This document shows positions 699 through 17,289 of a stretch of 18,657 bases of DNA, one piece after another. Within the stretch, counting starts at the first letter, position 1, and the number at the start of each line of letters is the position of its first letter. The notes beneath the pieces are model-generated. The model made no database searches and was not told the DNA's origin. It saw only the letters and a list, made by a program, of their open reading frames with translations. The translations under genes and the position numbers were made by a program. Origin of the DNA: a virus (lineage: Duplodnaviria; Heunggongvirae; Uroviricota; Caudoviricetes); the IMG/VR virus record IMGVR_UViG_2923344815_000006; one strand, written 5' to 3'.

Positions 699-912
699 TG
701 GAGCACCTCAAAAACACCATCATACACTAAATCAGTAAGTTGGCAGCATCACCCACCATGCAGATAGTTAGCAATTCTTTAGTATCTTTTCTGCTCACAC
801 CAACCCCCTTTAGCGTTGTTTAGAATGGCAATCATCATATATCCAAGACATGGCATTTGGTACATAGCTTGGGTCGGGATTTCAAATCCGATCCCCGTTG
901 ATGGGGCCGTTA

Positions 913-1290
913 CAGTACGCGCATATCCGCTTTATGTGAAACAGGAAGATTTTTCTGATATCACTGCCACAGCAAAACACCAATTTCGTGACCAGTACGC
1001 GCGCGAGGGGTATCAGTTGCAAAAATTTTGCAACTACGTCCGACCAGTACGCACACGATGGCGGGGGATACCATGAAACTGTTCTCTACACGAGACAGAG
1101 TGGTGGTGATGTGTTGATTATCGGCGTATATGCGCACAGGACGCGCTATGACGATGTTTTATGCGGGTACACCAATCACATGTATCTGATGTGATAAATC
1201 GTGTTACATGACATCTCATGTTGTGCTGGTGGTTATCACGACGTTCTGAATCTGGCCTTTGCCTGATATTTTGCGACAAGTACGCGCGCG
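913..1290. repeat. Cluster of four copies of a (C/A)AGTACGCGCGCG-like motif plus a perfect 19-bp palindrome, in a non-coding region
   Basis: Motif copies at 913-922, 992-1005, 1044-1057 and 1277-1290; palindrome GTTGCAAAAATTTTGCAAC at 1016-1034; only short overlapping ORFs in the region. Confidence 0.5.
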
Positions 1291-1622
1291 TAGCATCGAA
1301 ATTATCGGATGGCGTATGCTGCTGGCAATATGAAGACCGATAGTATTAACCGAAAAGCGATTAAGGAGTGCCAACTTTTCAGTAGAGAAACTAGCCAGCA
1401 TAGGAAAATGTAGAAATTACCCAATTAATAGGTAAAAGTTATTGACACAGCCTGTAGTGGATAACGATATGAATAAAAACCACATATAGTGGTTTTTCGT
1501 GAGTGATGATAGTATCTATGTTAGTTTCCTAAGTAACTGTGCATTGACATGTGGATAACTTCGGATAGAGTTACAGGCAACCGAGCCCGATCCTCTGTTT
1601 CTCCGCCGCCGATTTCAGGCAT

Positions 1623-2645
1623 GTGAGTTTCACGGTCGGGCCTTTTATTATCTTTTGTTTCGCCACTATGATTGCCGCAAAGCCTCATAAGGACTATCAC
1701 GAATTGCTAGGATTGCTACTTGAACGTGGCATGATTATCAATGATCGAAATCGTGCGATACGTAAGCTGTCGCAGGTTGGATATTATCGATTGTCAGGTT
1801 TTTGGTACCCATCAAGAATTATTGCGACAACAGATAAAGGTCTTTCGTACAGAACAGACCGATTTCTTGCTGGTACCAGTTTCGAGAAGACGTACGATCT
1901 ATATCTTTTTGACAAAAAACTGCGTCTTTTGATGATTGATGCTATCGAAAGAATAGAGATTCATGTTCGTTCAGTCATCGCGCATGAGGTTGGTCGCAAT
2001 GATCCACTTGCCTACATGTCATCAAAATACATTAATCCAAAATTCTCATCTGCCTTCGAGCATTGGGTGTATAAGCAAAAAGTAAAATTAGACGAAAGCA
2101 GAGATGACTGTATTGAATGGCATCGAAGCCAAGGCAAGGAGATTCCATTTTGGGTGGCGGTGGAGACCTGGGATTTTGGTCAGATGTCTAAATATTATGC
2201 GATGCTTAATGGTCATATGCAGGGGAAAATTATACGTCGTTTTGGCATTGATAATAAGCAGACATTTGCAAAATGGTTGAAGTGCCTTAATCTCATAAGG
2301 AATCGTTGCGCTCACCATTCCAGAATATGGAATAGAAAGCATCCCCGAGTTCCAGTACCGGATAATGAATACTTTGACGGACTTAATCTCCATCCAGAGA
2401 GTTGCGAGAGGATTTTTAGCGCGATCTGTATTATCTGGTACTTAGTTAAACGACTTGGTCCGGGATCAACATGGCTTCGGCAAATTGCAGACCTTATTGA
2501 CTCTAAACCAAATGTTCCCGGATGTGGATATGATTCAATGGGTTTACCTGCTAAAGGATTCCCACGAGAGAGATTCTCTCAGGACTTAGGTTTTGTTATC
2601 GCCGACAACGACCCTGTAGCTGAAGGGCGGAAAGGGAGCGATTGA
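1623..2645 (+). CDS. Abi_2 family abortive-infection protein (AbiD/AbiF-like)
   Basis: N-terminal YHELLGLLLERGMII...YYRLSGFWYP and the RNRCAHHSRIWN motif are typical of the Abi_2 family; visibly AT-rich. Start uncertain (1623 or ATG at 1666). Confidence 0.75.
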   Translation: MSFTVGPFIIFCFATMIAAKPHKDYHELLGLLLERGMIINDRNRAIRKLSQVGYYRLSGFWYPSRIIATTDKGLSYRTDRFLAGTSFEKTYDLYLFDKKLRLLMIDAIERIEIHVRSVIAHEVGRNDPLAYMSSKYINPKFSSAFEHWVYKQKVKLDESRDDCIEWHRSQGKEIPFWVAVETWDFGQMSKYYAMLNGHMQGKIIRRFGIDNKQTFAKWLKCLNLIRNRCAHHSRIWNRKHPRVPVPDNEYFDGLNLHPESCERIFSAICIIWYLVKRLGPGSTWLRQIADLIDSKPNVPGCGYDSMGLPAKGFPRERFSQDLGFVIADNDPVAEGRKGSD

Positions 2646-2674
2646 GCGATAAATATCATTTATACACTGATCAA

Positions 2675-3115
2675 TTACTGAAGCAGCGTATTGATTCTTT
2701 TAATATTGTTACCCTGACGCTTCCACGCGCTGTAAATGTCTTTATCCCACGCTTTACCAGCTTTTGTTTGGTAGCCTGCTTCATTGAGCCGTTCCGCTAT
2801 CACACGCCCATTATCAAATCCCTGTCGGATGGTATCGGCAATGATCTTTATAACTGCCGTTTCGTTATATGGCTTTGGTGGGATGTTCGGCTTTCCGGCA
2901 ATAAGCGACGCAGCGGCTTTTTCCATGCGCTCCACCAGCCCAAGCATTCGTGAATCAATAGACTTTTCCGGCTGTCCCAGCTTCATGCGAATCGCATCAA
3001 CAAGCCAGGAGGTTTTATCCCCTCCAGAAGCGAGAACAGACCGATTAAACTCATCCTGCAATTCAGATGGGATGCGGAACGCGACCAGATTAGATTTGCT
3101 CATTGCAAAGACCAT
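2675..3115 (-). CDS. Hypothetical DNA-binding protein (RHH-like N-terminus; C-terminal LNEAGYQTKAGKAW recombinase-domain-like motif)
   Basis: 146-aa ORF convergent with the Abi gene, ending next to iteron block A; alternative ATG at 3103 (MSKSNL...). Confidence 0.55.
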   Translation of the reverse strand: MVFAMSKSNLVAFRIPSELQDEFNRSVLASGGDKTSWLVDAIRMKLGQPEKSIDSRMLGLVERMEKAAASLIAGKPNIPPKPYNETAVIKIIADTIRQGFDNGRVIAERLNEAGYQTKAGKAWDKDIYSAWKRQGNNIKRINTLLQ

Positions 3116-3216
3116 ATCAGTGAGTAATATCCATACAGTATACCACTGTATAACACTGTTATACGCTCAAATATCAGCCAGAAAATAACGGACCAATCAC
3201 AAAGCTATCGCTGTGT

Positions 3217-3338
3217 TGTTGGTTCAGAGCTGGGCTGTGTTGGTTCAAAATGAGTTGATGTTGGTTCAATATTTCAGAAAAAACACAATAAAAACAACGA
3301 TCTTTACAAATTGAACCAACTGAACCAACTGAACCAAC
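3217..3338. repeat. Iteron block A (origin-like): 3 direct TGTTGGTTCA repeats, AT-rich spacer, 3 tandem TGAACCAAC repeats
   Basis: Direct repeats at 3217, 3238 and 3259 (21-bp spacing); tandem inverse-orientation repeats at 3312-3338; near-identical block at 10049-10160. Confidence 0.8.
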
Positions 3339-3374
3339 ACCTTTTTGCTTATCTATATAATCTGAGAGGCAGAA

Positions 3375-3662
3375 ATGATAAGGGACAGGAAAGCTGAAGA
3401 ACTGGAGTCAAAAGGGCTATACCGGAGAGCTGCCGCACGATGGGCAGAAGTCATGATGCTGGCAGATGGCGATAAAGAACGTGAACATGCAGCAAACAGA
3501 CGCTCTGAATGTATCCGTAAGGCGGCACGCCCACCAGCAACTACAGACAGATTCGGAGATTTAAGACAGGCAGTTAAGCGGACTCATTCGGCTCTTGGTA
3601 TGGATGAGGAAGCGAGAGGGTATTTCAGGCGTTATCGCGATAAAGATTGCCAGAGACAGTAA
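3375..3662 (+). CDS. PerC-family transcriptional regulator-like protein
   Basis: 95-aa ORF; ELESKGLYRRAAARWAEVMM...RRSECIRKA resembles the PerC family common in E. coli prophages; GAGAGG Shine-Dalgarno upstream. Confidence 0.6.
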   Translation: MIRDRKAEELESKGLYRRAAARWAEVMMLADGDKEREHAANRRSECIRKAARPPATTDRFGDLRQAVKRTHSALGMDEEARGYFRRYRDKDCQRQ

Positions 3663-3920
3663 TGCTCTCTCTGTTTTGGCAAATTACCCCTCACTTTGAA
3701 GGGATCGGAGCTATAAAAATGGTGTTATCCGGCTTCCTGCATTGCAGGTTTTCGAAAGAATCAATGGGTTAGGTTATCGTGCAAATTTGCACTCTGCCAG
3801 CCAACGCAATTTCTCGTTGGCGGAAATATCAGGTATTTACTGAACGAACGGTCTACCCGCCTGTTCAACTACCAGTTGTACATGGCTGCTTTATGTGCAA
3901 ATGGTGGTGAGAGAAAATTG

Positions 3921-4022
3921 TTTGGGGGTACTTTTGGGGGTATCTCCAAAGATGTAACTGGAAAATGTCTTTATATATCAATGTATTTTTATTGTTTGTT
4001 TTGTTCCTATTATCGCACCATT
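3921..4022 (+). other. Distal att junction of the integrative element (arm-type sites plus imperfect core copy), inverted relative to thrW
   Basis: TTTGGGGGTACTTTTGGGGGTAT (3921-3943) matches rc of 17079-17104 next to the integrase gene; TCCTATTATCGCACCA (4005-4020) matches the tRNA 3-prime end with one 1-nt gap. Confidence 0.6.
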
Positions 4023-4254
4023 AAAATCAAAGAGTTACCCCATATTTAAATACACCACGTTTCCTCCTGTGCCGTATTTGTGCCATTGTAACCTTGGCAA
4101 TTCATCAAAATACTGTTCTGACATCAGGCAGTGCAGGTGCAGACATTTAAGCCAATTGCTGCCGCCATTCTTTGACGTAGTCAATCAGGGCGCGGAGCTG
4201 GTGATGCTGCCAACTTACTGATTTAGTGTATGATGGTGTTTTTGAGGTGCTCCA

Positions 4255-4530
4255 GTGGCTTCTGTTTCTATCAGCTGTCCCTCCTGTTCAGCTACTGACG
4301 GGGTGGTGCGTAACGGCAAAAGCACCGCCGGACATCAGCGCTATCTCTGCTCTCACTGCCGTAAAACATGGCAACTGCAGTTCACTTACACCGCTTCTCA
4401 ACCCGGTACGCACCAGAAAATCATTGATATGGCCATGAATGGCGTTGGATGCCGGGCAACTGCCCGCATTATGGGCGTTGGCCTCAACACGGTTTTACGT
4501 CACTTAAAAAACTCAGGCCGCAGTCGGTAA
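4255..4530 (+). CDS. insA: IS1 protein InsA
   Basis: Translation identical to the InsA ORF of copy 1. Confidence 0.9.
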
Positions 4531-4952
4531 CCTCGCGCATACAACCGGGCAGTGATGTGATTGTCTGCGCGGAAATGGACGAACAGTGGGGCTACGTCGG
4601 TGCTAAATCACGTCAGCGCTGGCTGTTTTACGCGTATGACAGGATACGGAGGACAGTTGTGGCGCACGTTTTCGGTGAACGCACTCTGGCCACACTGGCG
4701 CGTCTTCTGAGCCTGCTGTCGGCCTTTGAGGTCGTGGTATGGATGACGGATGGCTGGCCGCTGTATGAATCACGCCTGAAGGGAAAGCTGCACGTTATCA
4801 GCAAGCGTTACACTCAGCGCATTGAGCGACATAATCTGAATCTGAGACAACATCTGGCAAGGCTGGGACGGAAGTCACTGTCGTTCTCAAAATCGGTGGA
4901 GCTGCATGACAAGGTCATCGGGCATTATCTGAACATAAAACACTATCAGTAA
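4449..4952 (+). CDS. insB: IS1 transposase InsB
   Basis: Translation identical to the InsB ORF of copy 1. Confidence 0.9.
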
Positions 4953-4970
4953 GTTGGAGTCACTACCTGC

Positions 4971-5546
4971 ATGGTGTACTTTTCAATTTATTTTTGTGCA
5001 TACATGGTAGTCCCAGATGAGTTTGAACATGGCAGTATTATTTATTCCATAACATTCTATTTTTTAGAGCTAACACCAATTTTGGCTATCCTTTTGGCAA
5101 TACATATTTATTTTTCCTTAAAAAAAGAATCGACTAATTGGGAGAAGGTATGGAGAGACAGAGGATTTCTAACATCACCTAAAGATGATGCATATGAGAG
5201 TGATTTTTCTGACTTTATAACAAACTACTACTCCAGCGAACAATTCAAAAATAGACTGTCTGATGTTTGGGAAACAGCAATGTATTCCATAGGGATTATA
5301 TTATTGATACTTACTGGTATCGCTCAATATGTTTTTAACATTGACTTATCATTAAATCCTGAAAATTTAATATCGCCATTGATTTTTGGTGAGATATTGA
5401 TCTTCTCATTCGGAATTTTCTTGAGTGTTGTTCTCTGCTCATTATGCAAACTACTGACTAACAGGTATCCAGGTGAAGCAAGGAGAGCAAGAAAGGCAAA
5501 TCCATATTATCTTTTATTTCCTAATGGAGACAGCAGAGATATCTAA
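4971..5546 (+). CDS. Small integral membrane protein (3-4 predicted TM helices), 5-prime end disrupted by IS1
   Basis: 191-aa AT-rich ORF with hydrophobic stretches at about residues 1-13, 23-50, 103-122 and 133-162; starts 4 bp after the IS1 end; its predicted original start and first 15 codons lie at 798..754 on the minus strand. Confidence 0.6.
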   Translation: MVYFSIYFCAYMVVPDEFEHGSIIYSITFYFLELTPILAILLAIHIYFSLKKESTNWEKVWRDRGFLTSPKDDAYESDFSDFITNYYSSEQFKNRLSDVWETAMYSIGIILLILTGIAQYVFNIDLSLNPENLISPLIFGEILIFSFGIFLSVVLCSLCKLLTNRYPGEARRARKANPYYLLFPNGDSRDI

Positions 5547-5564: not shown

Positions 5565-7670
5565 TTATTGAGCTTCTTTTTGTGATGCCTGTGCGACTCT
5601 GGTGAGCGATTGTGTGACCGTACTGATCGCTCTGTCATATGCTGTGCTACCTTTTGGCGTATTTGCCAGACGTAACAAGGCATTTCGTATAACAGGGCTT
5701 TCGTATGCCTTCGCTGCTCCGCCTACGGCACCAGCAGCAGGAACAACAAACGCAGCCGTTTTTAGCATCCCCGCTAATACTGCTGCGTTTATGATGCCAC
5801 CACCAACTAACAATCCATAAAGCTGCTGACCATTTAAGTTTTGAACGTTCGCTTTTGCCGCGTGTCTTGTATCGTTGAGGTATTTAATAACGCCGTCCAG
5901 TTCCTTTCCATGTACGCCTTTAAAGAAAGTTGCTGATTGCTTCCTGTTCCGGTGTAACGCATTAATAAACTTCTCAACACTGATATTTCCAGACGGATCA
6001 GTCGCCTTATCTACAGCATTCTGAACTATGGCTGCTCGTGCGTTTTGCCTACCATTGTCATCCAGAAGCCTGTAAAGCTGAGAACGTTCTGATGGGCTTT
6101 GGCTAAAAACGAGTTTTGTTACATCCTCAGGCGTGGCCTTGCCGCTGGCTATTGCCTTTTGAACGCGCGTTCTTCCCATCATGTCATTGAATTTAGACCA
6201 TGAGCGATCAACCCTTGCCATATTAATGGCTTCGTCTGCTCCAAGATTTTTGGCTACGGCTTTTTTCATATCCGCCGTATATGCCTTGTAGATAATATCG
6301 CTGGCTTTCTGGAGCGTATCTTTATCAACAGTGTCAGATGACGCCATAAATCGCTTTCGAAGATCGGTTCTGTTTTCCCTCGCCAGACGCAGGTCATTTG
6401 GTCCGCTGGTGATATCGTCTTTAAATTGCTGCAAGACTTTTACCGCGGCTCTATCCTGAGATTTGCCCGGGCGGCTTAACACGGCAATCTGATTGTCGAT
6501 AGCTTTTACCGTGTTTGAGAGATCGACAGGGGTATCCCCCATAGCGTCAATTATGCGGTTATATCGCTTTCCTGCTGCCTCAATGAATTTTTGTTGCCCT
6601 TTAGTCGCAGATTCATAAAGCTGTTTATCAGAAATGCCACCCAGACCATCGCTAAATGTTCTGACTAAATTTTCTCGTGCTTGTTGTTGATTCAGCCGAT
6701 TCTTACCGGTTCCAAAAAAAGGAACTCTTTCGCCTAATGTCTGAGCCTGACTCTGCATAAAGGTTTTATCTTTCAGCATGTCACTGGTCATTAACGGCAG
6801 ATTTCTTTCCGATGCAAAGTCGACAGCAGCCTTTGCTTCAGGCGACATATCACCACGAACAGCCCTCGAAACCGCACTCGCTGTATTTTCCAGCCCCTTA
6901 CCAATACCACCAATGCCAGCAGAAATTACCGTTTGTAACGGATCAATATCTTCTCCACCAGCAAGACTGGTGGCTCCCTGTAGTGCTAAATCTGTAGCTG
7001 CTGATTTTCCTATGGCACTAAGCACCGTTCCAGCCCTGCCCGCTGGTGTAAACGCCAACGCATTAGCAAGAAACGAGGTCAGGTCTTGCGGTGATAAACC
7101 CGGCTTGTTCAGGGCATAATCACCTGATGGCAGAGAAACGATAGTATTCCCCTTCTCATCCTGCCTTAATGTCGCCCCCATTCCCTGAAGAATCTTTTCC
7201 TGAGACGCGTCAGAGCCGAAAAGTTGAGACCATCCAGCCTTTAGGGCATCCATGCTTAGTGAGTTCAATTCTGGGGCAGAGGCGACATTTTGCAGTCTCT
7301 CCATCTCTGGAGTCATTCGGCTTTCGCCTGTTATAGCATCGCGCATCGCAGCCCCAAGACTGGCTCCCTGTTCTGCTGAACGCTCAAGCCCCTCTCTTTG
7401 CTGAGTAGCTAACTTTGCATACCCTGACGCAAGAGAATTATCAGATGATGTATGTTGAATATTTTGAGTTGCTGATTGGGATCGGTCTATTTCATTCGTT
7501 GATGGTAGTGGATAGGCAGCATAAAAAGCCTGCTTAGCCTGCTCTACACTTTCTCCGGCTTGCGGGGCCACGACTTCATTGAAGTATTGCTCCTGAGCCT
7601 GCGCTTTTTGTTCTGGTGCTAACGCCTGATACTGTGGAGAGGCGATAACATCTTTCCATGCTTTAGCCAT
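5565..7670 (-). CDS. Uncharacterised 701-aa Ala/Gln/Ser-rich protein with C-terminal hydrophobic Gly/Ala-rich segment
   Basis: Long ORF coupled to the upstream gene by a TAATG stop-start overlap; no enzymatic motif I recognise; hydrophobic segment LYGLLVGGGIINAAVLAGMLKTAAFVVPAAGAVGGAAKAY near the C-terminus. Confidence 0.7.
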   Translation of the reverse strand: MAKAWKDVIASPQYQALAPEQKAQAQEQYFNEVVAPQAGESVEQAKQAFYAAYPLPSTNEIDRSQSATQNIQHTSSDNSLASGYAKLATQQREGLERSAEQGASLGAAMRDAITGESRMTPEMERLQNVASAPELNSLSMDALKAGWSQLFGSDASQEKILQGMGATLRQDEKGNTIVSLPSGDYALNKPGLSPQDLTSFLANALAFTPAGRAGTVLSAIGKSAATDLALQGATSLAGGEDIDPLQTVISAGIGGIGKGLENTASAVSRAVRGDMSPEAKAAVDFASERNLPLMTSDMLKDKTFMQSQAQTLGERVPFFGTGKNRLNQQQARENLVRTFSDGLGGISDKQLYESATKGQQKFIEAAGKRYNRIIDAMGDTPVDLSNTVKAIDNQIAVLSRPGKSQDRAAVKVLQQFKDDITSGPNDLRLARENRTDLRKRFMASSDTVDKDTLQKASDIIYKAYTADMKKAVAKNLGADEAINMARVDRSWSKFNDMMGRTRVQKAIASGKATPEDVTKLVFSQSPSERSQLYRLLDDNGRQNARAAIVQNAVDKATDPSGNISVEKFINALHRNRKQSATFFKGVHGKELDGVIKYLNDTRHAAKANVQNLNGQQLYGLLVGGGIINAAVLAGMLKTAAFVVPAAGAVGGAAKAYESPVIRNALLRLANTPKGSTAYDRAISTVTQSLTRVAQASQKEAQ

Positions 7671-9148
7671 TAATCACCCCATAGTGAAGAAAAGTTACTG
7701 CTGGCTGCTGGCTGTGATACCTGCTCAGATTGCGGCAATGTCTGCGACGAAGAAGCAGTTCCTCTGTCAACTGCTGAAATAACCCGCAAAGCATCATAAG
7801 TTCGACCAGAAGCAGCTTTCAGCGAATTGAACTGGTTTTCCATCTTCCGGCGCTTGGTATCAATGGTTTTTGTGGAATCACCAGGCTGAGGGAAATACAT
7901 TTGATAATATTTGGACATTTCAGCTGGTAGGATAGATGCCCCTGTTTCCTGACGGAGTATTGCCATTATTGCGTCATTAGCATTAACAACGTATTGCTGC
8001 TCTGCTGGGCTGAGCGTTAAGTTAGCCAGCGTCCCATTACCCAAAGCATTATTAATGATCGCCACTCGCTGTGGGCTAAGCTGGTCTTTCAGTGTATCTA
8101 TTGAATCAAGAGCATCCCTAACCCTGTATGCAAATCCAGCAGCTTTTTTAGCCCCTTCTGGCGACTTTTCCATGATCTTTTGGGCTGTTGGCAAAGCTAT
8201 TGGACGAAACCCATCTCCAGATATTGGCTGGTTTAGTTTTCCCTGCTCTTCACTTCCGTCTGTGTAGTATTTTGTGACAGTGCCATCATCGTTTTCTCTA
8301 ACACTCATTAATTTTTTGGCGTTTGTATTAATTCCAGCCGCTGCCGCAAATGCCGCCGCCCCCTCTGGATCCGCCTTTAACATTTGAGCGTACTGATTGT
8401 AATTCTGCATTGCTGCTGTTGGTGCATATGCTGACGTTAACGCATTTGCTCGGCTAATATCCTGCCCTCTCGCCTGAAGTGCTTCGCCAGCCTGATTGCT
8501 GCGGATTGTCTCTGCCAACTTGCCACGCTCAATATCCCGACCTTCCATTTGATCTTTGATATCGAAATACTTCTCATGACCGAGAGAAAACAGCGCCAGA
8601 TTACCTGCGAAATGCTGGAAGCCCTGCGGGTCATTAACCTGCATTTCAGCAATAGTTTCTGGAGGGATACCTAAACGACGCATCTCCTGCTCATTATCCA
8701 TCATGAACCTGCCAAATGCGCCCTGACCAAGCGATGAGGCTACCTGTGCTTTGAGCGCCAGATTGCCATAATCATCCCTTTGAGCATCATCGACATAACT
8801 CATCCCTTTACGGACTTCCTCAAACTCTTCTGGGAATGCTGTAATAAGATTACGCATCTGCTCCCTGTCACCGGACGCATAAGCATCTGCATAAGCTTTC
8901 TGGAATGCCGCTTTACGCTCCTGCTGTTGCTGCTGCTTATAAATATCAGCAACGCCAGCCAGACCACGAAGACCTGTCAGAGCAACGTTATTTGCACCTG
9001 AGCGAGCCAGTTCATTGTTTTCGCGGATCAGACCAAGCGTTGCGTTAATGTCGCTTGCCTTTGGCGCATTCTCATTTTGCGTACCGATGCCAGCCAGAAA
9101 ACCACCAGAATTAATACCCTGTTGCCACGTAGCCATTGATTTACCCAC
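7670..9148 (-). CDS. Uncharacterised 492-aa Ala/Gln-rich low-complexity protein
   Basis: Long ORF; probable true start is ATG at 9136 (MATWQQ...) rather than the GTG at 9148; poly-Q stretch and Ala-rich tracts. Confidence 0.7.
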   Translation of the reverse strand: MGKSMATWQQGINSGGFLAGIGTQNENAPKASDINATLGLIRENNELARSGANNVALTGLRGLAGVADIYKQQQQQERKAAFQKAYADAYASGDREQMRNLITAFPEEFEEVRKGMSYVDDAQRDDYGNLALKAQVASSLGQGAFGRFMMDNEQEMRRLGIPPETIAEMQVNDPQGFQHFAGNLALFSLGHEKYFDIKDQMEGRDIERGKLAETIRSNQAGEALQARGQDISRANALTSAYAPTAAMQNYNQYAQMLKADPEGAAAFAAAAGINTNAKKLMSVRENDDGTVTKYYTDGSEEQGKLNQPISGDGFRPIALPTAQKIMEKSPEGAKKAAGFAYRVRDALDSIDTLKDQLSPQRVAIINNALGNGTLANLTLSPAEQQYVVNANDAIMAILRQETGASILPAEMSKYYQMYFPQPGDSTKTIDTKRRKMENQFNSLKAASGRTYDALRVISAVDRGTASSSQTLPQSEQVSQPAASSNFSSLWGD

Positions 9149-9314
9149 GTCCAGTTAAAGTGTAAGCCAGCGCCTTATCCATTAATCCCCGAGCAATTTC
9201 GTGGATCGTTGGCGCAACTCCTACCTCTGATTTTTTACGCTGCTCCTCCTGAATTTTCTTTATCGCTTCCATTTGCTTCTCACTTATCAATACTGGCTTT
9301 ACTGAAATAGCCAT
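9141..9314 (-). CDS. Small 57-aa protein, possible ribbon-helix-helix regulator (not in supplied ORF track)
   Basis: ATG at 9314 preceded by AAGGGGG Shine-Dalgarno; translation MAISVKPVLISEKQMEAIKKIQEEQRKKSEVGVAPTIHEIARGLMDKALAYTLTGRG; stops 5 nt before the 492-aa gene ATG. Confidence 0.5.
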   Translation of the reverse strand: MAISVKPVLISEKQMEAIKKIQEEQRKKSEVGVAPTIHEIARGLMDKALAYTLTGRG

Positions 9315-9348
9315 AACGCCCCCTTAGAACTGTATAAAACAACAGTCA

Positions 9349-9378
9349 TTATAGTTTCATAAAACGCAACATTCATCA
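9349..9378 (-). promoter_or_regulatory. Putative promoter of the 57/492/701 operon (consensus -10, weak -35)
   Basis: TATAAT on minus strand at 9354..9349, about 35 nt upstream of the 57-aa ORF start; no good -35 hexamer. Confidence 0.3.
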
Positions 9379-9407
9379 TTGTGATTGCAAAATATGAAAC
9401 AAATAGC

Positions 9408-9442
9408 ACAAAAAAATGCCACCGTTCAGTAGCTGGTGGCAT
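9408..9442 (-). terminator. Rho-independent terminator downstream of the 153-aa gene
   Basis: Minus-strand hairpin with 8-bp stem ATGCCACC/GGTGGCAT and 11-nt loop, followed by a run of 7 T. Confidence 0.7.
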
Positions 9443-9494: not shown

Positions 9495-9956
9495 TTATGG
9501 AGTCGCATTACTCTTCATGGCGTGAGCTTTCCTGTTCTCTCTTTGTTCCTGGTTCCATGGATAAGTGTAATTGCCACCAGCAAAGACCATATTGATTTTG
9601 TGAGGAACCATTAAAGCGATATCAGCACTCATGTCACTGAATGAAACACAGTGCAGACGTTCAAGCCATTTGTATGCTGCTGCCGCTTCTCCCCACAAAT
9701 TAATCCCTGCAAGTTCAACAATATCTCTGATGGAGCAGATATCAACCATCCCGTTAACGCCTGTAAAACGGCGTTTAAAGTCGCCAAGATACTTTCTGAA
9801 AAGAGTTGCTTTCATTGGTTCAGAAAGGTCTATGTATGGGAACACAACCACATCAAGCAGCATCTCCCTTCTGTTGTTCATCGGTATTACAGATGGCAAA
9901 TCGGATACTTTGCCAAATACATGATGAAAAGCCTTTGCGATTATCTTCATCATCAA
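9495..9956 (-). CDS. Hypothetical 153-aa protein
   Basis: ORF with GGGAG Shine-Dalgarno; probable start ATG at 9953; between iteron block B and its own terminator; no recognised motif. Confidence 0.6.
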   Translation of the reverse strand: MMMKIIAKAFHHVFGKVSDLPSVIPMNNRREMLLDVVVFPYIDLSEPMKATLFRKYLGDFKRRFTGVNGMVDICSIRDIVELAGINLWGEAAAAYKWLERLHCVSFSDMSADIALMVPHKINMVFAGGNYTYPWNQEQRENRKAHAMKSNATP

Positions 9957-10048: not shown

Positions 10049-10160
10049 TGTTGGTTCAAAATGCCGTGTTGTTGGTTCAGTGTTGGTTCAATAAAAAGAA
10101 TAAAATCCTTATAAAACAATACTCTTTACAAATTGAACCAACTGAACCAACTGAACCAAC
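10049..10160. repeat. Iteron block B (origin-like), same organisation as block A
   Basis: TGTTGGTTCA at 10049, 10070 and 10081; tandem TGAACCAAC at 10134-10160; shares CTTTACAAATTGAACCAACTGAACCAACTGAACCAACACCTTTT with block A; lies just 3-prime of the helicase-like gene. Confidence 0.8.
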
Positions 10161-10185
10161 ACCTTTTCTACGCACATGAAGAAGC

Positions 10186-11316
10186 TCATTCTTCAGATGA
10201 GTTGTAATCTCCTGGCTGGTAATTGAGTACATAAACGTTTATTTGTCGTCCCTGAATACGTGGTGATTTTCTTTGGTATCCACGACCGCTGTTTGGTGGG
10301 GTTAGCATCCCGGCTTTTTTCAACACTTCAGCAAACTGTTTTGCGTTGAAACCACATGCGATCTCCTTTTCAAATGTGGCCGGGAATGTGTAGAAAATCA
10401 TTGGGCTTTCGTCATGTTCTCCACGCTGACGGTATCCGGCTAAATCTTTGATGGGCAAATCTGCCGGGCTGTATGGAAATGGTGCAAAACGGCTAAGCCC
10501 ATAGGCATTAAGAAATGCCTCCGTTTGTTCAATAATCTGCTGATGCTCTTTGTTACCTGTGCCGAACTCGCGCAACCATGCGTTATAGCTGTGCTGTATC
10601 GCATCACGGCATGTCTGAGCATCCCAGCCTGTTACAACCTCGCCTAACAACAATGCGGCCTCCAGAATGGCAAATCGCGCGGCTACACGGTGAACCTGCT
10701 CACCATAATCGGATGGGATCAGGCTTCTCCATCTGCTTTCGCAGTCACGAACAGTTTTAATAGCCTGTTGCTGGTGGTCTGCCAGCCATTTAATCCACTC
10801 ACGCCCGGACGCGCCGTGGTGATGCTGGTAAGCGTCTTTCAGTGCGTCTGCGTGCTGTTTTCCGTTCTGGTAATCGTGAAAGCGTACTGCTTTACTCAAC
10901 GGAATATTCAGCAGTCGCACCATTTGCCCGGCTTTGGTTTTTCGCCCGGAAGTAGCGATAAATGTTTCTAAATCCATTTCTCCGGTGCTGATTGCCACTG
11001 TACGCCAGCGTTTTAGATCCCGGTTTCCACCATCTTTAGCGCCTTGCAGTTTCCCTACACCGTTAAATAACGCATAGGCAGACTGTGAAACACTGACAGG
11101 ATCAGCGCCCTGACCAACTTCATCAAGCGGCATTAGTCCGTCATTGTGGGCGGCAGCTTCATTTGCCAGCCCCAGCGCGGTTCCGTACCACGTCAGCCGC
11201 AGTAAATCAGGGTTGCCGTATAAGCTGCTCGCCACGTTTGCCGTGGTGGTCTTACCTGCGCTCGACTGCTCATAGAAATGAATGCCGAACCCGTCAGCGC
11301 CCACCAGCCCAATCAA
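10186..11316 (-). CDS. DUF927/SF3 helicase-like replication protein (P4 alpha / PICI Rep C-terminal type), apparently 5-prime-truncated
   Basis: Walker A (SSAGKTT) within ...AAHNDGLMPLDEVGQ...RWRTVAISTGE...KAGQMVRLLNIP, typical of the DUF927 helicase domain; ORF-track start is a TTG; in-frame stop at 11374-11376 with no ATG upstream. Confidence 0.65.
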   Translation of the reverse strand: MIGLVGADGFGIHFYEQSSAGKTTTANVASSLYGNPDLLRLTWYGTALGLANEAAAHNDGLMPLDEVGQGADPVSVSQSAYALFNGVGKLQGAKDGGNRDLKRWRTVAISTGEMDLETFIATSGRKTKAGQMVRLLNIPLSKAVRFHDYQNGKQHADALKDAYQHHHGASGREWIKWLADHQQQAIKTVRDCESRWRSLIPSDYGEQVHRVAARFAILEAALLLGEVVTGWDAQTCRDAIQHSYNAWLREFGTGNKEHQQIIEQTEAFLNAYGLSRFAPFPYSPADLPIKDLAGYRQRGEHDESPMIFYTFPATFEKEIACGFNAKQFAEVLKKAGMLTPPNSGRGYQRKSPRIQGRQINVYVLNYQPGDYNSSEE

Positions 11317-11429
11317 TGGCGCTGCCAGTGCTGCGCCGATCCCGGTCAGCCCAGCACATGAGGCCAGTTGTTTTCAGACGCACTGATAACCTGACGGATA
11401 AGATCAATGTTTCGCATTCTGGCCCCCGT

Positions 11430-12032
11430 TTAGTGCGTCACTGGTGCTTCTGGGATGCCGTTTTCGTTTAGTTCGGCAATAAAGCTGTTGTGAAGATCGG
11501 CAAGCACTTCTCGCCCAAACGAAGTGAGTGTTCCCTGTTCGACATCGAACATGTTGCTGTAAAAAATGATGGCATTCTTTGTTCCGACATCAACACCATA
11601 TTTCTCGATCATTGCGCCCTCAATGTTGTTTGCCATAGCGAGGCGCTCTGCTACTGGATACAGCGGCATGGCGACGATGCCATTGGAATAAACAGAAACC
11701 ACGGAATGATTGCCACTGTCATCAATAATGCTGACGGTGCCGTTTCCCTTTCTCATTTCATTGATGAATGCTGTTGCTATCAGCCAGCGCCACATAATCA
11801 CGTGATGCTGTGATGTGTAATCGAAATATCCCTGGTTGCCGCCACTGGCAATAGCGAGATGTATAAACATGCCTTCATCTGGTTTATCGTCATAATCCCC
11901 GGCATCCAGACGATTTACGGCATCAATATATGAGACGGTCTCAACGCGTTCTGTCATGCCATCGTTGCTGCGGTGCATGATGTTTACGCCGTCAGGCGTT
12001 GCTTCTGCATGGAAGGTTAAGAAATTATTCAT
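11430..12032 (-). CDS. Hypothetical 200-aa protein (upstream of the helicase-like gene, different frame)
   Basis: ORF-track ORF 11430..12137; probable start ATG at 12032 (MNNFLTF...), overlapping the upstream gene stop by 8 nt. Confidence 0.5.
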   Translation of the reverse strand: MNNFLTFHAEATPDGVNIMHRSNDGMTERVETVSYIDAVNRLDAGDYDDKPDEGMFIHLAIASGGNQGYFDYTSQHHVIMWRWLIATAFINEMRKGNGTVSIIDDSGNHSVVSVYSNGIVAMPLYPVAERLAMANNIEGAMIEKYGVDVGTKNAIIFYSNMFDVEQGTLTSFGREVLADLHNSFIAELNENGIPEAPVTH

Positions 12033-12246
12033 GTTTCGCCTCGCCTGAATGATTCTGTAACTCATATTTGCCCAACAATTCGTCTGCTTCCTGAATAGCT
12101 TCTGGTACGCCATTGAGCAGTGACATAACCGCGCCAATCATTAACTTGTCTCTGTTGCTGGGGCTGGCCCCTTCAAGCCAGAACCCTAAAACAGTCTGAA
12201 CCTGTTCGATGCGACATTGCGCTTCAATGAGCTGGATGTTGGTCAT
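12025..12246 (-). CDS. Hypothetical small protein (73 aa)
   Basis: ATGA stop-start overlap with the upstream gene at 12243-12246. Confidence 0.5.
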   Translation of the reverse strand: MTNIQLIEAQCRIEQVQTVLGFWLEGASPSNRDKLMIGAVMSLLNGVPEAIQEADELLGKYELQNHSGEAKHE

Positions 12247-12506
12247 TTCGCACTCTCCACATCGATTAAACTGATATCTATCAGGGAGGTAACTTTTTGT
12301 AGCCAGCTATTGATTACTGTCGCCTGTTCCCCTCCCACCGAGGGAATAATCTCATTCATCACATGAACCAGACCTGTGCGCGCTCTGGTAAGCCGTTCAG
12401 TCGCGCAATCTGCGGGAGTGAATGTGTCTGGATATGGCTCTTCGCGCCCCAGCAATGATTCAATTTCCAGCTCACACGGATGACGATAAATTAAGTTGAT
12501 ATTCAT
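12243..12506 (-). CDS. Hypothetical small protein (87 aa)
   Basis: ATGA stop-start overlap with the upstream gene at 12503-12506. Confidence 0.5.
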   Translation of the reverse strand: MNINLIYRHPCELEIESLLGREEPYPDTFTPADCATERLTRARTGLVHVMNEIIPSVGGEQATVINSWLQKVTSLIDISLIDVESAK

Positions 12507-12697
12507 TTTTCACCCCCAAGAATTACCAGCTCGGCACGGGCATCGTTAACCAAAGATGAGCACGCTTTAATCGCATCCACGACATCAGCAGCGTCCATTT
12601 CTTCAGCCGAAAGACTGACAGCAACCAGGACAGCCGCTGCTTGCTCGATTAATTGAAGTGCGGACGTAAGGCGAGGGGTATTAATTGAGTTATTCAT
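12503..12697 (-). CDS. Hypothetical small protein (64 aa from ATG 12697; ORF-track alternative start 12754)
   Basis: Internal ATG ([10 protein letters not shown]...) 8 nt upstream of the preceding gene stop, consistent with the coupling seen along this gene chain. Confidence 0.45.
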   Translation of the reverse strand: MNNSINTPRLTSALQLIEQAAAVLVAVSLSAEEMDAADVVDAIKACSSLVNDARAELVILGGEK

Positions 12698-13757
12698 TGG
12701 TTGCCCCCGTTTTGCATGGCATTTGTCCACCTTCCAGCAGGAAATGAACGTCACGAACGGCGAGATCCAATATCGCGAGTAACGCCTTCAGTTTTTCGTC
12801 TCGTGAGGGAGAGTTGCTCACCAGAATGTCATTAATCACTTCTGTCAGTGTGATGATCTGGCTTGTGCGTTCGAGGGGATCCATATGCACATCGTAGGTT
12901 TTAATCATGTGCCACCTCCATGCGGATACGACCAGCAAAAAAGCAGACGTGATCGCGCACCAGAGAACGGCGAGCATCGCGTTCAGACTCGGCAGCAATA
13001 TGATGAATTTTGGCGGTAATTGTCGGGCAATCGCGGCGAACTGCGGCGATAATCCAGATAAATTGCGGTTTTTGGGTAGGGGTAGTAGCCAGCATGTGGC
13101 AGCCTCCATTCGATAGCATGTAACGCTACCACCGGAAACGCCAATTTCGCTGGTGGTAGCCCAGACAGGGTTGGCGTAACCGGCTCGAATGGATACCGGC
13201 GCTTCCGAAGAAGCCCCTGCCTGAGCCACCATTGATTGACAAAGGCGCTGGATTATACACCAACGCCCAAAAAATGGGTGAGTCAGACCTACGACATAAA
13301 AAAAGACGCTCGGCGCGTCATATGTCGCCATTCGATTTACCAGGACGCCAATCCCGGCACCCGTTTTATGAGGTGCCTTATAACCATAAACCGTGTTGCC
13401 GCATAACGGCAAGCTCTTTTTTATGGACTCCGAAAACTCACTATTGGAAGAACCAGAAGCACAGTACATCGCGCTCATTTCGTTAACGTCACGCGCGTGG
13501 ACGAATGTTTTTGTGGAGTCACTACACGAGCAGAACAGGTCATCTACGACCAGAAATTCTCTGGCGCAGCCGCTGACCTTCTCAACGCTAACATCATCGA
13601 CCGTGATTTCTGACATAGTTAAGGCATCCGCTCCTACCACCAGCAAATGATAAACTTTGCTTGTATCTGCTGTATTAATGCCTGACTTTGCTGTCATATT
13701 GCTGGATTTTGGCGACATGCCAGCCAGTGAAAATGTCTTCTTCTGGGCGGTTAGCAT
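12690..13757 (-). CDS. Long ORF of uncertain coding status; C-terminal 72 codons from ATG 12907 look like a genuine small helical protein
   Basis: 356-codon open frame coupled to the upstream gene, but the central part is Trp/Cys-rich and not protein-like, and 12900-13120 is open in three frames. Confidence 0.3.
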
Positions 13758-13933
13758 TTGTTAACCTCCGCGAACTCCTTCATGAAACGTGCCAGCGGTT
13801 GTACGCATGGCGATTGATACCCGTCGCGATAAAACGTCACTCGGTTGTGAGACACGCTTTCGACAGTAACGAGTGCTCCGTGGGCATCTTTGTAGCGTTT
13901 TTGAGGTTGTGGTGTTCCTGTCGGCTTAAACAT
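13751..13933 (-). CDS. DUF4222-like small phage protein
   Basis: 60-aa product from ATG 13933 (ORF-track ORF starts at 14020); RYKDAHGALVTVESVSHNRVTFYRDGYQSPCVQPLARFMKEF resembles the DUF4222 family. Confidence 0.6.
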   Translation of the reverse strand: MFKPTGTPQPQKRYKDAHGALVTVESVSHNRVTFYRDGYQSPCVQPLARFMKEFAEVNKC

Positions 13934-15833: not shown

Positions 15834-17048
15834 TCATGCGTGTTTTTCAAACACCATATGCACCACATTTCCGCCATGCTCGAGAGAATCCATATAGTCG
15901 GCATACCATTGAAGCATCTCCCGCCGTCCATCCAGATATTGCGCATGGTTGTATGTGCCACGAATTGAGTTCTTATCAACGTGAGCGAGCTGCGTTTCTA
16001 TCCACGCGGTGTTATAGCCCTGCTCATGCAAAATCGTGCTCATAGTGTGTCGGAACCCATGACCAGTTACACGTCCAGCGTAGCCAATGCGCTTAAACAC
16101 TTGGTTTATGCTGGCCTCACTCATTGTTTTCCTTGGATCATTGCGCCCGGGAAACATAAGAGGGTAATTGCCTGTTATTTCTCTAATCTTCCCAATAAGC
16201 GAAAGAGCCTGCTCAGACAATGGCACAATATGAGGCCGCCGCATTTTCATACGTGAAGCGGGTATCTCCCATATAGCCTTGTTGAAATCAATTTCATCCC
16301 ATAATGCGCCACGTAGTTCGCCAGTTCGCAAGCCGGTGATAATCAGTAGGCGAGCCGCCATAACAACCAATGCGCTTCCTGAGTAACTGGATAATGCCTT
16401 GAAAAAATCAGGTAATTCTTTGGTCGTAAGGAAAGGGTAATGATTAGATTCATGGCCTTGCATCGCGCTAGTAAGGTCTGGTGCAGGGTTATACTCTGCG
16501 CGACCAGTGACTATTGCATAGCGGAAAACTTCCCCGCACCGCTGCCTCACTTTTTTGGCTTTTTCTGTCGCACCGCGCCCCTCGATGCGCCGCAGCACAT
16601 TCAGAAGTTCAAGTGGTTTGATTTCGGCGATTGGTTTTTTGCCAATGTAAGGGAACACATCTTTGTTGAAGGCTTCGAGGATGTCTGAAGCATAACCAGC
16701 AGACCATTTTTTTAATTTGCTGCTGTGCCACTCAAGGGCAATATCTTTGAAGGTGTTGTTTAACTGCGTTTCCCGGGCAATCTTTTCCTCTCGTTTCGCT
16801 TCCATCGGATCGATACCACCAGCGATACCTCTTTTCGCATCTTCACGTTTTGCCCGAGCATCGGCTAGAGTAACCTCAGGATACACACCTAGTGCCAATA
16901 GCTTCTCTTTACCTGCTACACGATATTTAAGTCGCCAGTATTTACCTCCATTAGGTTTTACCAAGAGATACAAACCGCCACCATCGGCCAGCTTGTAAGC
17001 CTTCTCTTTTGGCTTGGCTGTGTCTATTTGACGGGCATTGAGTTTCAC
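15834..17048 (-). CDS. P4-type tyrosine integrase (DUF4102 arm-binding N-terminus)
   Basis: 404-aa product; N-terminal ...AKPKEKAYKLADGGGLYLLVKPNGGKYWRLKYR... and C-terminal R..HGFRHT..Y-type catalytic region; GTG start with GGAGG Shine-Dalgarno; adjacent to the tRNA. Confidence 0.9.
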   Translation of the reverse strand: MKLNARQIDTAKPKEKAYKLADGGGLYLLVKPNGGKYWRLKYRVAGKEKLLALGVYPEVTLADARAKREDAKRGIAGGIDPMEAKREEKIARETQLNNTFKDIALEWHSSKLKKWSAGYASDILEAFNKDVFPYIGKKPIAEIKPLELLNVLRRIEGRGATEKAKKVRQRCGEVFRYAIVTGRAEYNPAPDLTSAMQGHESNHYPFLTTKELPDFFKALSSYSGSALVVMAARLLIITGLRTGELRGALWDEIDFNKAIWEIPASRMKMRRPHIVPLSEQALSLIGKIREITGNYPLMFPGRNDPRKTMSEASINQVFKRIGYAGRVTGHGFRHTMSTILHEQGYNTAWIETQLAHVDKNSIRGTYNHAQYLDGRREMLQWYADYMDSLEHGGNVVHMVFEKHA

Positions 17049-17213: not shown

Positions 17214-17289
17214 TGGTGCCGATAATAGGAGTCGAACCTACGACCTTCGCATTACGAATGCGCTGCTCTACCAACTGAGCTATATCGGC
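17214..17289 (-). tRNA. thrW: tRNA-Thr (anticodon CGT)
   Basis: Reverse complement reads GCCGATATAGCTCAGTTGGTAGAGCAGCGCATTCGTAATGCGAAGGTCGTAGGTTCGACTCCTATTATCGGCACCA: canonical cloverleaf, CGT anticodon, CCA end. Confidence 0.95.

Follow-up and report, generated by a model that had tools for sequence, protein, structure and literature searches.

We analyzed a stretch of DNA of 18,657 nucleotides from the IMG/VR virus record IMGVR_UViG_2923344815_000006 (the window, by which we mean this whole stretch at its full length). It is a decayed satellite of the EcCIMP1 type, a phage-inducible chromosomal island (PICI) at a tRNA-Thr gene next to proA, and it carries a minus-strand operon of three genes encoding a small protein of 57 amino acids (aa) and two large proteins of 492 and 701 aa. 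As judged by profile and sequence similarity, the two large proteins are almost certainly homologues of gp20 and gp16, the ejection proteins of phage P22. In P22-like podoviruses both are packaged in the capsid, ejected, and build a DNA channel across the periplasm and the inner membrane, and SieA is the P22 factor that blocks this ejection channel. By analogy with phages and satellites that are better understood, we consider it fairly probable (about 0.6) that the operon is a functional virion-protein module of an EcCIMP1-type satellite, which would supply its own conduit proteins for particles built by a helper phage.

EcCIMP1 is the PICI of Escherichia coli MP1, and its helper is the phage vB_EcoP_Kapi1 (Pick, Stadel & Raivio, ISME J 2025, PMC11773190). 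It excised, and was transduced at low frequency, solely with this P22-like helper; the corresponding genes were coloured 'DNA transfer' in that paper, and a packaging role was proposed for EcCIMP1_017-019 (PMC11773190). The gene families, the element type and the RefSeq names were already known, and what is new here is the allele cassette of this locus.

Homology of the large proteins and of the convergent gene

The gp20-family protein matches the Pfam family PF16928 (Inj_translocase, the DNA/protein translocase of the P22 injectosome, that is, gp20) with E=5.5e-84 and 281.7 bits against a cutoff of 29.7, the match covering residues 16-232 of the 492-aa open reading frame (ORF) and profile positions 1-217 of 218. 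PHROG 917 matches the protein over its full length (E=9e-143), and BLASTP with P22 gp20 gave E=2e-85. Residues 1-239 share 55% identity with P22 gp20, the first 60 residues being nearly identical, while residues 94-459 share 54% identity with proteins of APSE phages. At the sequence level, the island gp20 is a typical mosaic of its family, with a P22-like N-terminal half and an APSE-like C-terminal part. The P22-like start of about 60 residues (window positions 8956-9136) differs from the gp20 N-terminus of the island in S1-KEN-07-A (KEN), which is 96% identical elsewhere. Because this start is near-identical to P22 and unlike that of KEN, the comparison points to a recent recombination with a P22-like phage, which would have set the gp20 N-terminus and also removed gp14 and gp7.

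For the 701-aa protein, the match to PHROG 770 ('DNA transfer protein') has E=1.1e-162 and runs from residue 19 to 700 and from profile position 3 to 667 of 668. BLASTP with P22 gp16 gave E=2e-52, with 31% identity over 435 aa, and the identity to the gp16 homologue of Escherichia phage N7 is 67.5%. Compared with P22 gp16, the island protein is 92 residues longer and has a stronger hydrophobic segment. It had no match in the Pfam copy searched, and NCBIfam matches neither this protein nor P22 gp16 itself; no curated cutoff was thus available for gp16, and membership was judged by PHROG 770, BLASTP and the RefSeq name. RefSeq already names the two genes 'phage DNA ejection protein' (gp20) and 'P22-gp16 family phage DNA ejection protein' (gp16). 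A PDB search gave no relative for either protein.

An earlier annotation of this DNA, made from the letters only (the sequence-only reading), had described both large proteins as rich in Ala, Gln, Gly and Ser, which the computed composition bears out (Ala 14%), and had seen no recognisable motif in them. The latter is true by eye, but profile searches name both proteins unambiguously, and the PF16928, PHROG 917, PHROG 770 and BLASTP matches support what it had offered as the alternative, namely ejection proteins like P22 gp20 and gp16. It had also placed a hydrophobic Gly/Ala-rich segment at the C-terminal end of the 701-aa protein. The segment exists, and its placement was wrong: by hydropathy it comprises residues 617-649, about 52 residues before the C-terminus. 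The preferred idea of that reading, a three-gene system not described before and unrelated to virion proteins, draws on the 57-aa protein, which has no known family, and is refuted by the strong full-length homology to gp20 and gp16 and by the P22 gene order, so that we give it practically no credence. As a defence system the trio fares no better, since PADLOC matched no defence-system model to it (the AbiD gene alone matched in the window), RefSeq names the genes already, and the EcCIMP1 paper had noted such genes.

The gene convergent with gp16 encodes a protein that resembles P22 SieA (BLASTP E=8e-8, 29% identity) and matches PHROG 7745 (E=3.7e-4); PADLOC gave no match for it. SieA is a multi-pass inner-membrane protein with a cytoplasmic FxRYPxEAxxFNK motif after its last transmembrane (TM) segment (PMC10883804). 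The island protein has four TM-like segments, and directly after the last of them it keeps RYPGEA, identical to the core motif of P22 SieA, without the flanking F or FNK (TNRYPGEARRARK). These features suggest that the adjacent gene encodes a SieA-type inner-membrane protein. The order gp20, gp16 and convergent sieA is exactly that of P22, including a gp16/sieA gap of ~20 bp (18 bp here). P22 sieA sits between genes 16 and 9; in the window no gene 9 follows the sieA-like gene and no prophage surrounds it. An IS1 in the 5' end of the window gene has displaced its first 12 codons and its promoter, and intact 204-aa versions are found in T309, KEN and CH4804. According to Leavitt et al. (mBio 2024), sieA homologues have been reported only within P22-like prophages (PMC10883804), and the island gene would be a homologue outside them.

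EcCIMP1 confers superinfection immunity against Kapi1 via a gene that was not identified, and helper titres are not lowered (PMC11773190). The SieA-like gene is a concrete candidate for this unexplained immunity of EcCIMP1-type islands. In EcCIMP1 itself, the place of the SieA-like gene is occupied (L002, 12632-13330) by a gene for a predicted lipoprotein of 232 aa, with a signal peptide ending in LLAGC and no family match, and this lipoprotein could be another envelope-protein candidate for the EcCIMP1 immunity.

The same immunity, its gene being unassigned, the adjoining SieA-like gene, and the frequency with which satellites carry defences (AbiD in this island) would also fit a host-protective exclusion module, a defence cargo made of phage parts, in which intracellular gp20 and gp16 together with SieA hinder incoming P22-like phages in building their conduit or poison virions of the infecting phage. 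We regard this as improbable. Ejection proteins operate from the side of the virion, and no route is known by which copies in the cytoplasm could reach the periplasmic conduit; EcCIMP1 leaves helper titres unreduced on induction; the PADLOC search was blank for the trio; and the tape measure and baseplate hub proteins found in analogous slots of related islands fit virion building better.

A conserved slot for virion proteins and its upstream gene

At least 80% of the trio is present in 301 of 5,426 complete E. coli genomes, and the full-length or near-full-length matches that were examined in context all lie in thrW islands. Across four island copies, the ratio of nonsynonymous to synonymous substitution rates (dN/dS) of gp16 is 0.07-0.16, and all ORFs are intact. 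In E. coli the module is thus widespread, unbroken and subject to purifying selection. Four cassettes were found on the same island backbone. The window carries the small gene, gp20 (488 aa), gp16 (701 aa) and sieA; S1-KEN-07-A carries the small gene, gp14, gp7, gp20 (473 aa), gp16 (701 aa) and sieA; AMSCJX02 carries the small gene, gp20 (449 aa), gp16 (701 aa) and a 129-aa gene; and EcCIMP1 carries the small gene, gp14, gp7, gp20 (439 aa), gp16 (906 aa, with a transglycosylase domain) and the lipoprotein gene. Alleles have been swapped on one backbone. The partial match in AMSCJX02 had been considered as a possible helper prophage with the same gp16, and it proved to be another island. Because gp14 and gp7 come and go between cassettes (KEN and MP1 have them, this window and Serratia lack both) while gp20 and gp16 are always kept, the latter two form the constant part of the module.

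A scan with the small protein, using one genome per species, yielded 15 loci in 11 genera; further loci came from an exact-protein look-up, giving 12 genera including Escherichia. The DUF927 primase lies upstream in 15 of the 15 scan loci, and the small gene is always downstream of this primase and directly upstream of virion-protein genes. The slot thus defined carries different cargo in different genera. In Escherichia and Serratia it holds P22-type ejection proteins, the Serratia case being an independent arrangement of small gene, gp20 and gp16 without gp14 or gp7, and in Erwinia, Pantoea, Chimaeribacter, Lonsdalea and Serratia silvae a 108-aa protein and a tape measure of ~1,050 aa (PHROG 1107, E=0). 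Three large proteins occupy it in Leclercia, Klebsiella and Pectobacterium, annotated as internal virion proteins in Leclercia and partly in Klebsiella. The Leclercia proteins match PHROGs 418, 1044, 3003 and 684 (internal virion, transglycosylase and virion structural proteins), and the first slot gene matches PHROGs 1044 and 992 in Klebsiella and Pectobacterium (scanned genes only), where the Pectobacterium slot begins with a transglycosylase-containing 'head protein'. Raoultella has a transglycosylase-containing protein of 605 aa. In Rahnella the slot holds a baseplate hub (PHROG 196), after which comes a small-terminase-like gene. The slot genes are not the edge of a prophage, because only small ORFs come after them in the related islands. 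In every related island sampled the slot holds virion proteins, nearly all of them components of DNA delivery.

Both the 57-aa gene and its promoter are peculiar to this satellite family, in which they invariably stand first in the module. For the small protein, 45 homologues (31-99 aa) were found; those with a named source all come from Enterobacterales, and no homologue carries a relevant Pfam domain. An alignment of 15 sequences has 20 invariant columns. A tblastn search of 50,697 phage records gave no match, even with the threshold at E=1. The sequence-only reading had taken this protein for a ribbon-helix-helix (RHH) regulator, and no search supports that assignment: Pfam, NCBIfam and PHROGs gave no match, a PDB profile search gave nothing meaningful, and hhalign probabilities against P22 Arc and Mnt were below 1%. 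The AlphaFold2 model (predicted local distance difference test score 74) has an extended N-terminus and two helices, a predicted shape that is compatible with an RHH monomer. The C-terminal tail, YTLTGRG, was considered as a gp7 leftover after a deletion and rejected, as it matches neither the KEN gp7-like protein nor P22 gp7.

The operon promoter was missed by a sigma-70 consensus scan and was revealed by the cross-genus alignment, in which the blocks TTTCAT..TGCAAT..TGAAAyTATAAT..CTGT are conserved over 11 genera. In the window, the -10 element TATAAT lies at 9353-9348, with a weak -35 element, and an inverted 8-bp repeat, GTTTCATA/TATGAAAC, is located at 9354-9361 and 9393-9400. Right after TATAAT stands a LexA-box-like palindrome, CTGT-N8-ACAG (9345-9330), seen in the E. 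coli and Serratia forms. It occurs once in the window against 0.23 expected, and because it is the only such site we regard it as a candidate LexA box, which suggests that the module may be under SOS or operator control.

These observations bear on whether the genes are anything more than an inert fossil, that is, a 20-16-sieA piece of a P22-like prophage captured at the shared thrW attachment region and carried since as a functionless passenger. Several features favor such an origin: the synteny is identical to that of P22, the first 60 residues of gp20 are nearly P22-identical, the P22-like helper has an integrase and an excisionase similar to those of EcCIMP1, and the window copy is visibly decaying. 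Nevertheless, we judge it unlikely, as no further prophage structural gene is found in the window, the low gp16 dN/dS and the intact ORFs hold for all copies examined, at least 80% of the trio recurs in the 301 genomes, and several alleles have been exchanged on one backbone. In addition, Serratia has filled the slot independently, and 10 more genera have done so with different virion proteins, always downstream of the same small gene with its promoter. For the prophage remnant that the sequence-only reading had held out as its alternative the fit is likewise poor: P22-like structural genes were sought in the window and none was found beyond the ejection genes, and the module is conserved and selected in a satellite family.

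The slot contents also bear on the idea of the EcCIMP1 authors that the genes have a role in packaging or capsid morphogenesis, by which helper packaging or capsid assembly would be redirected to satellite DNA. The packaging genes of PICIs usually sit downstream of the primase and the origin of replication (ori), as this module does, and small-terminase-like genes come right after the module in some relatives (Raoultella, Rahnella). We consider this role very improbable, however, given that the full-length homology is to ejection proteins and not to a terminase or scaffold, and that P22 mutants in genes 7, 16 and 20 make DNA-filled particles which fail at injection only (PMC10883804).

Possible role in helper-built particles

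If the operon works as a virion-protein module, the course of events might be as follows. In the presence of an active P22-like helper, the satellite would express gp20 and gp16, perhaps via AlpA and/or release from LexA. The island proteins would then be loaded into helper-built procapsids, replacing the helper's own proteins or alongside them, and particles containing satellite DNA would inject it through a conduit specified by the satellite. One benefit could be an altered sensitivity to injection-blocking exclusion proteins such as SieA. SieA escape mutations map to exactly gp20 and gp16, where they lie in the C-terminal regions of both proteins, and P22 virions can work with ejection proteins of foreign origin (PMC10883804). 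The island SieA-like protein, by analogy with P22, would protect the host from superinfecting P22-like phages. The part of this scheme that concerns SieA bypass is doubtful. When the escape sites are mapped, P22 gp16 G532 aligns to a conserved Gly in island gp16, P546 falls in a region with a 9-residue insertion where the alignment is unreliable, and the gp20 escape sites lie in the C-terminal half, which is not homologous between P22 and the island.

Several considerations weigh against a functional module of this kind. First, ejection proteins enter procapsids before DNA packaging, and we know of nothing that restricts them to satellite-carrying particles. The gp7 protein, essential in P22, is missing here and would have to come from the helper. 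No sequenced phage has ejection proteins close enough to point to the helper of this allele, the best gp16 reaching 67%. Second, the low dN/dS could in part come from recent transfer from phages, and it is from the genes that we infer the expression of island gp20 and gp16 and their entry into virions. Because the primase is broken, the att sites are inverted and sieA is cut at its 5' end, the ejection genes of this copy may be idle at present. Third, a Kapi1-like prophage was found in only 2 of 21 EcCIMP1 strains (PMC11773190). Finally, Leavitt et al. observed that very different ejection proteins are still excluded by both SieA types, with HK620 proteins escaping partially (PMC10883804); SieA bypass by a change of allele is thus not easy, because such diverse proteins remain excluded.

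A wider version of the virion-protein module is a tentative possibility, well short of an even chance. Satellites of the EcCIMP1 family, throughout Enterobacterales, might use a single conserved expression platform, made up of the small gene with its promoter, as the carrier of replacements for the helper's DNA-delivery proteins, namely P22-type gp20/gp16, T7-like internal virion proteins, a siphovirus tape measure with its chaperone, or a myovirus baseplate hub. In E. coli the platform would be paired with an injection-blocking membrane protein (SieA-like, or the EcCIMP1 lipoprotein), so that entry escapes exclusion by resident prophages while the island shields its host. If true, this would be a podovirus counterpart, and a generalization, of the chimeric tails of PLE satellites considered below.

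The island copy, its features and related systems

The coordinates of the operon, of the surrounding elements and of the slot genes in related islands are collected in Table 1.

Table 1. Position of the operon, neighbouring features of the window, and slot genes of related islands.
Feature	Sequence	Position	Strand	Remarks
Small protein gene	window	9141..9314	-	first in operon, 57 aa; 53-61 aa in relatives; ORF
gp20-family ejection protein gene	window	7670..9136	-	488 aa from ATG 9136; ORF reaches GTG 9148 (492 aa)
gp16-family ejection ('DNA transfer') protein gene	window	5565..7670	-	701 aa
SieA-like inner-membrane protein gene (putative)	window	4971..5546	+	convergent with gp16, as in P22
Conserved promoter/operator region of the operon (predicted)	window	9320..9400	-	sequence and 11-genus alignment
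Terminator-like hairpin and T-run	window	9418..9440	-	ends the upstream 153-aa gene, sets it apart from the trio
Iteron block B, 3+3 inverted TTGGTTCA	window	10051..10159		putative satellite ori, just downstream of the primase gene
Iteron block A, 3+3 inverted TTGGTTCA	window	3219..3337		adjoins the PerC gene
TOPRIM/DUF927 primase remnant	window	10186..11316	-	C-terminal 376 aa
Satellite tyrosine integrase	window	15834..17048	-	adjoins tRNA-Thr (17214-17289) and proA
Tape-measure loci	L008/L009	9177-12665
Tape-measure loci	L017-L019, L021-L024, L026	~10150-13900		L019 and L022 look split or truncated
Three-large-protein and hub loci	L013	10529-17988
Three-large-protein and hub loci	L014/L015	10457-17332
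Three-large-protein and hub loci	L025	10182-17985
Three-large-protein and hub loci	L020	10153-13111

Within the operon, the gp20 stop overlaps the gp16 start at 7670, an arrangement also seen in P22, and 4 nt separate the stop of the 57-aa gene from the gp20 ATG. The RefSeq annotation of identical loci starts gp20 at this ATG, and 488 aa is probably the true length. The window has 13 copies of the 8-mer TTGGTTCA, where 0.9 would be expected; 12 of the copies make up the two inverted blocks, which flank the operon and are 85% similar to each other. The ORFs and iteron counts agree with the sequence-only reading in this respect, which had described three tightly linked minus-strand genes between two iteron blocks of a satellite. 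Between the ori iterons and the trio lies the 153-aa ORF (9495-9956) with its own terminator-like hairpin; T309 and KEN possess it, CH4804 and AMSCJX02 do not, and it has no match in Pfam, PHROGs, NCBIfam or PADLOC.

The window contains a tyrosine integrase, AlpA, AntA, Ash, small ORFs, the TOPRIM/DUF927 primase remnant, iterons, PerC, AbiD and two IS1 copies. Profile scans and annotation revealed no capsid, portal, terminase, tail or lysis gene in it, and a megablast of the whole window against phages matched only IS1 and short stretches of the ejection genes. The primase is a pseudogene with a 1,523-bp deletion relative to T309.Ta3 (junction at 11347/11348) that removed most of its N-terminal half, the intact protein having 918 aa. 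The two IS1 copies (1-753 and 4200-4967) are identical and inverted, the same 9-bp target sequence flanks both, and the segment between them (754-4199), which holds AbiD, PerC, iteron block A and the att core, lies in the opposite orientation to that of intact islands. As a result, the two att cores, 4005-4014 (+) and 17221-17230 (-), are inverted, and for this reason the island is probably unable to excise and immobile.

Two accessory genes lie in the flipped segment. The AbiD/Abi_2 abortive-infection gene (1623-2645; PADLOC AbiD 8e-58, Pfam Abi_2 2e-52) is accessory cargo, and Abi_2 genes occupy the corresponding end of related islands from Serratia, Erwinia, Raoultella and Rahnella. A PerC-family regulator gene (3375-3662; Pfam 2.6e-33) stands beside iteron block A; the EcCIMP1 PerC homologue represses LEE1 expression in Citrobacter rodentium (PMC11773190).

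Among searchable papers, we found none on P22-type ejection proteins carried by satellites, apart from the remark in the EcCIMP1 paper, and none on a family-wide pattern of satellites bringing their own DNA-delivery proteins for this satellite family. The closest known relative, EcCIMP1, occupies the same tRNA-Thr site between proA and yagU, has the same att core, TCCTATTATC, and shares the backbone of integrase, AlpA, AntA, DUF4222, Ash, TOPRIM/DUF927 primase, small protein, ejection genes and PerC, at 96-98% identity. It differs in its cargo. Its gp16 has 906 aa and a transglycosylase domain, whereas that of the window has 701 aa and lacks it; BLAST shows no similarity between the two gp16 proteins, and for gp20 the identity is 26% and confined to the N-terminal part. 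EcCIMP1 has gp14 (DUF2824), gp7 and the terminal lipoprotein, in contrast to the SieA-like gene of the window, and the window copy has the primase deletion, the IS1 insertions and the inversion.

Classical Gram-negative PICIs such as EcCICFT073 and EcCIEDL933 also have an integrase, AlpA, a primase-replication module, ori iterons and accessory genes. Mobilization that depends on a helper, a property of the family, has been demonstrated for EcCIMP1. Downstream of the ori, however, they carry packaging-redirection genes (Rpp) and no ejection proteins, and the EcCIMP1-type islands form a clade separate from them. With P22, the island shares homologous gp20 and gp16 in the same order, a convergent sieA-like gene, mosaic alleles, the RYPGEA core of the SieA motif and a predicted SieA-like membrane topology. 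Unlike P22, it lacks capsid, portal and tail genes, gp7, gp14 and a tailspike gene after sieA, and the C-terminal half of its gp20 resembles APSE phages.

The PLE satellites of Vibrio cholerae encode a tape measure, a tail chaperone and a baseplate hub of their own, from which chimeric tails are built (Nature 2026, PMC12987554). These tail proteins are required for transduction and evade a PLE-encoded inhibitor of the helper tape measure; in PLE11, the satellite's own tape measure is paired with the inhibitor Rta, which it encodes against the helper version (PMC12987554). The systems differ in several respects. PLEs are an unrelated element family in another host, whereas a podovirus helper and capsid-internal ejection proteins are concerned here; Rta acts on assembly in the producing cell, and SieA on entry into the recipient; and chimeric virions have been demonstrated for PLE, while the island family is known here from its genes. 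Experimental proof of satellite-supplied DNA-entry proteins is so far limited to the Vibrio PLEs. By analogy, both would be satellites that supply their own DNA-delivery or tail-core proteins, and relatives of the island carry a tape measure or a baseplate hub in the very same slot. The conservation of the island ejection proteins, together with the parallel slot cargo, suggests that satellites may quite generally replace the DNA-entry apparatus of their helpers.

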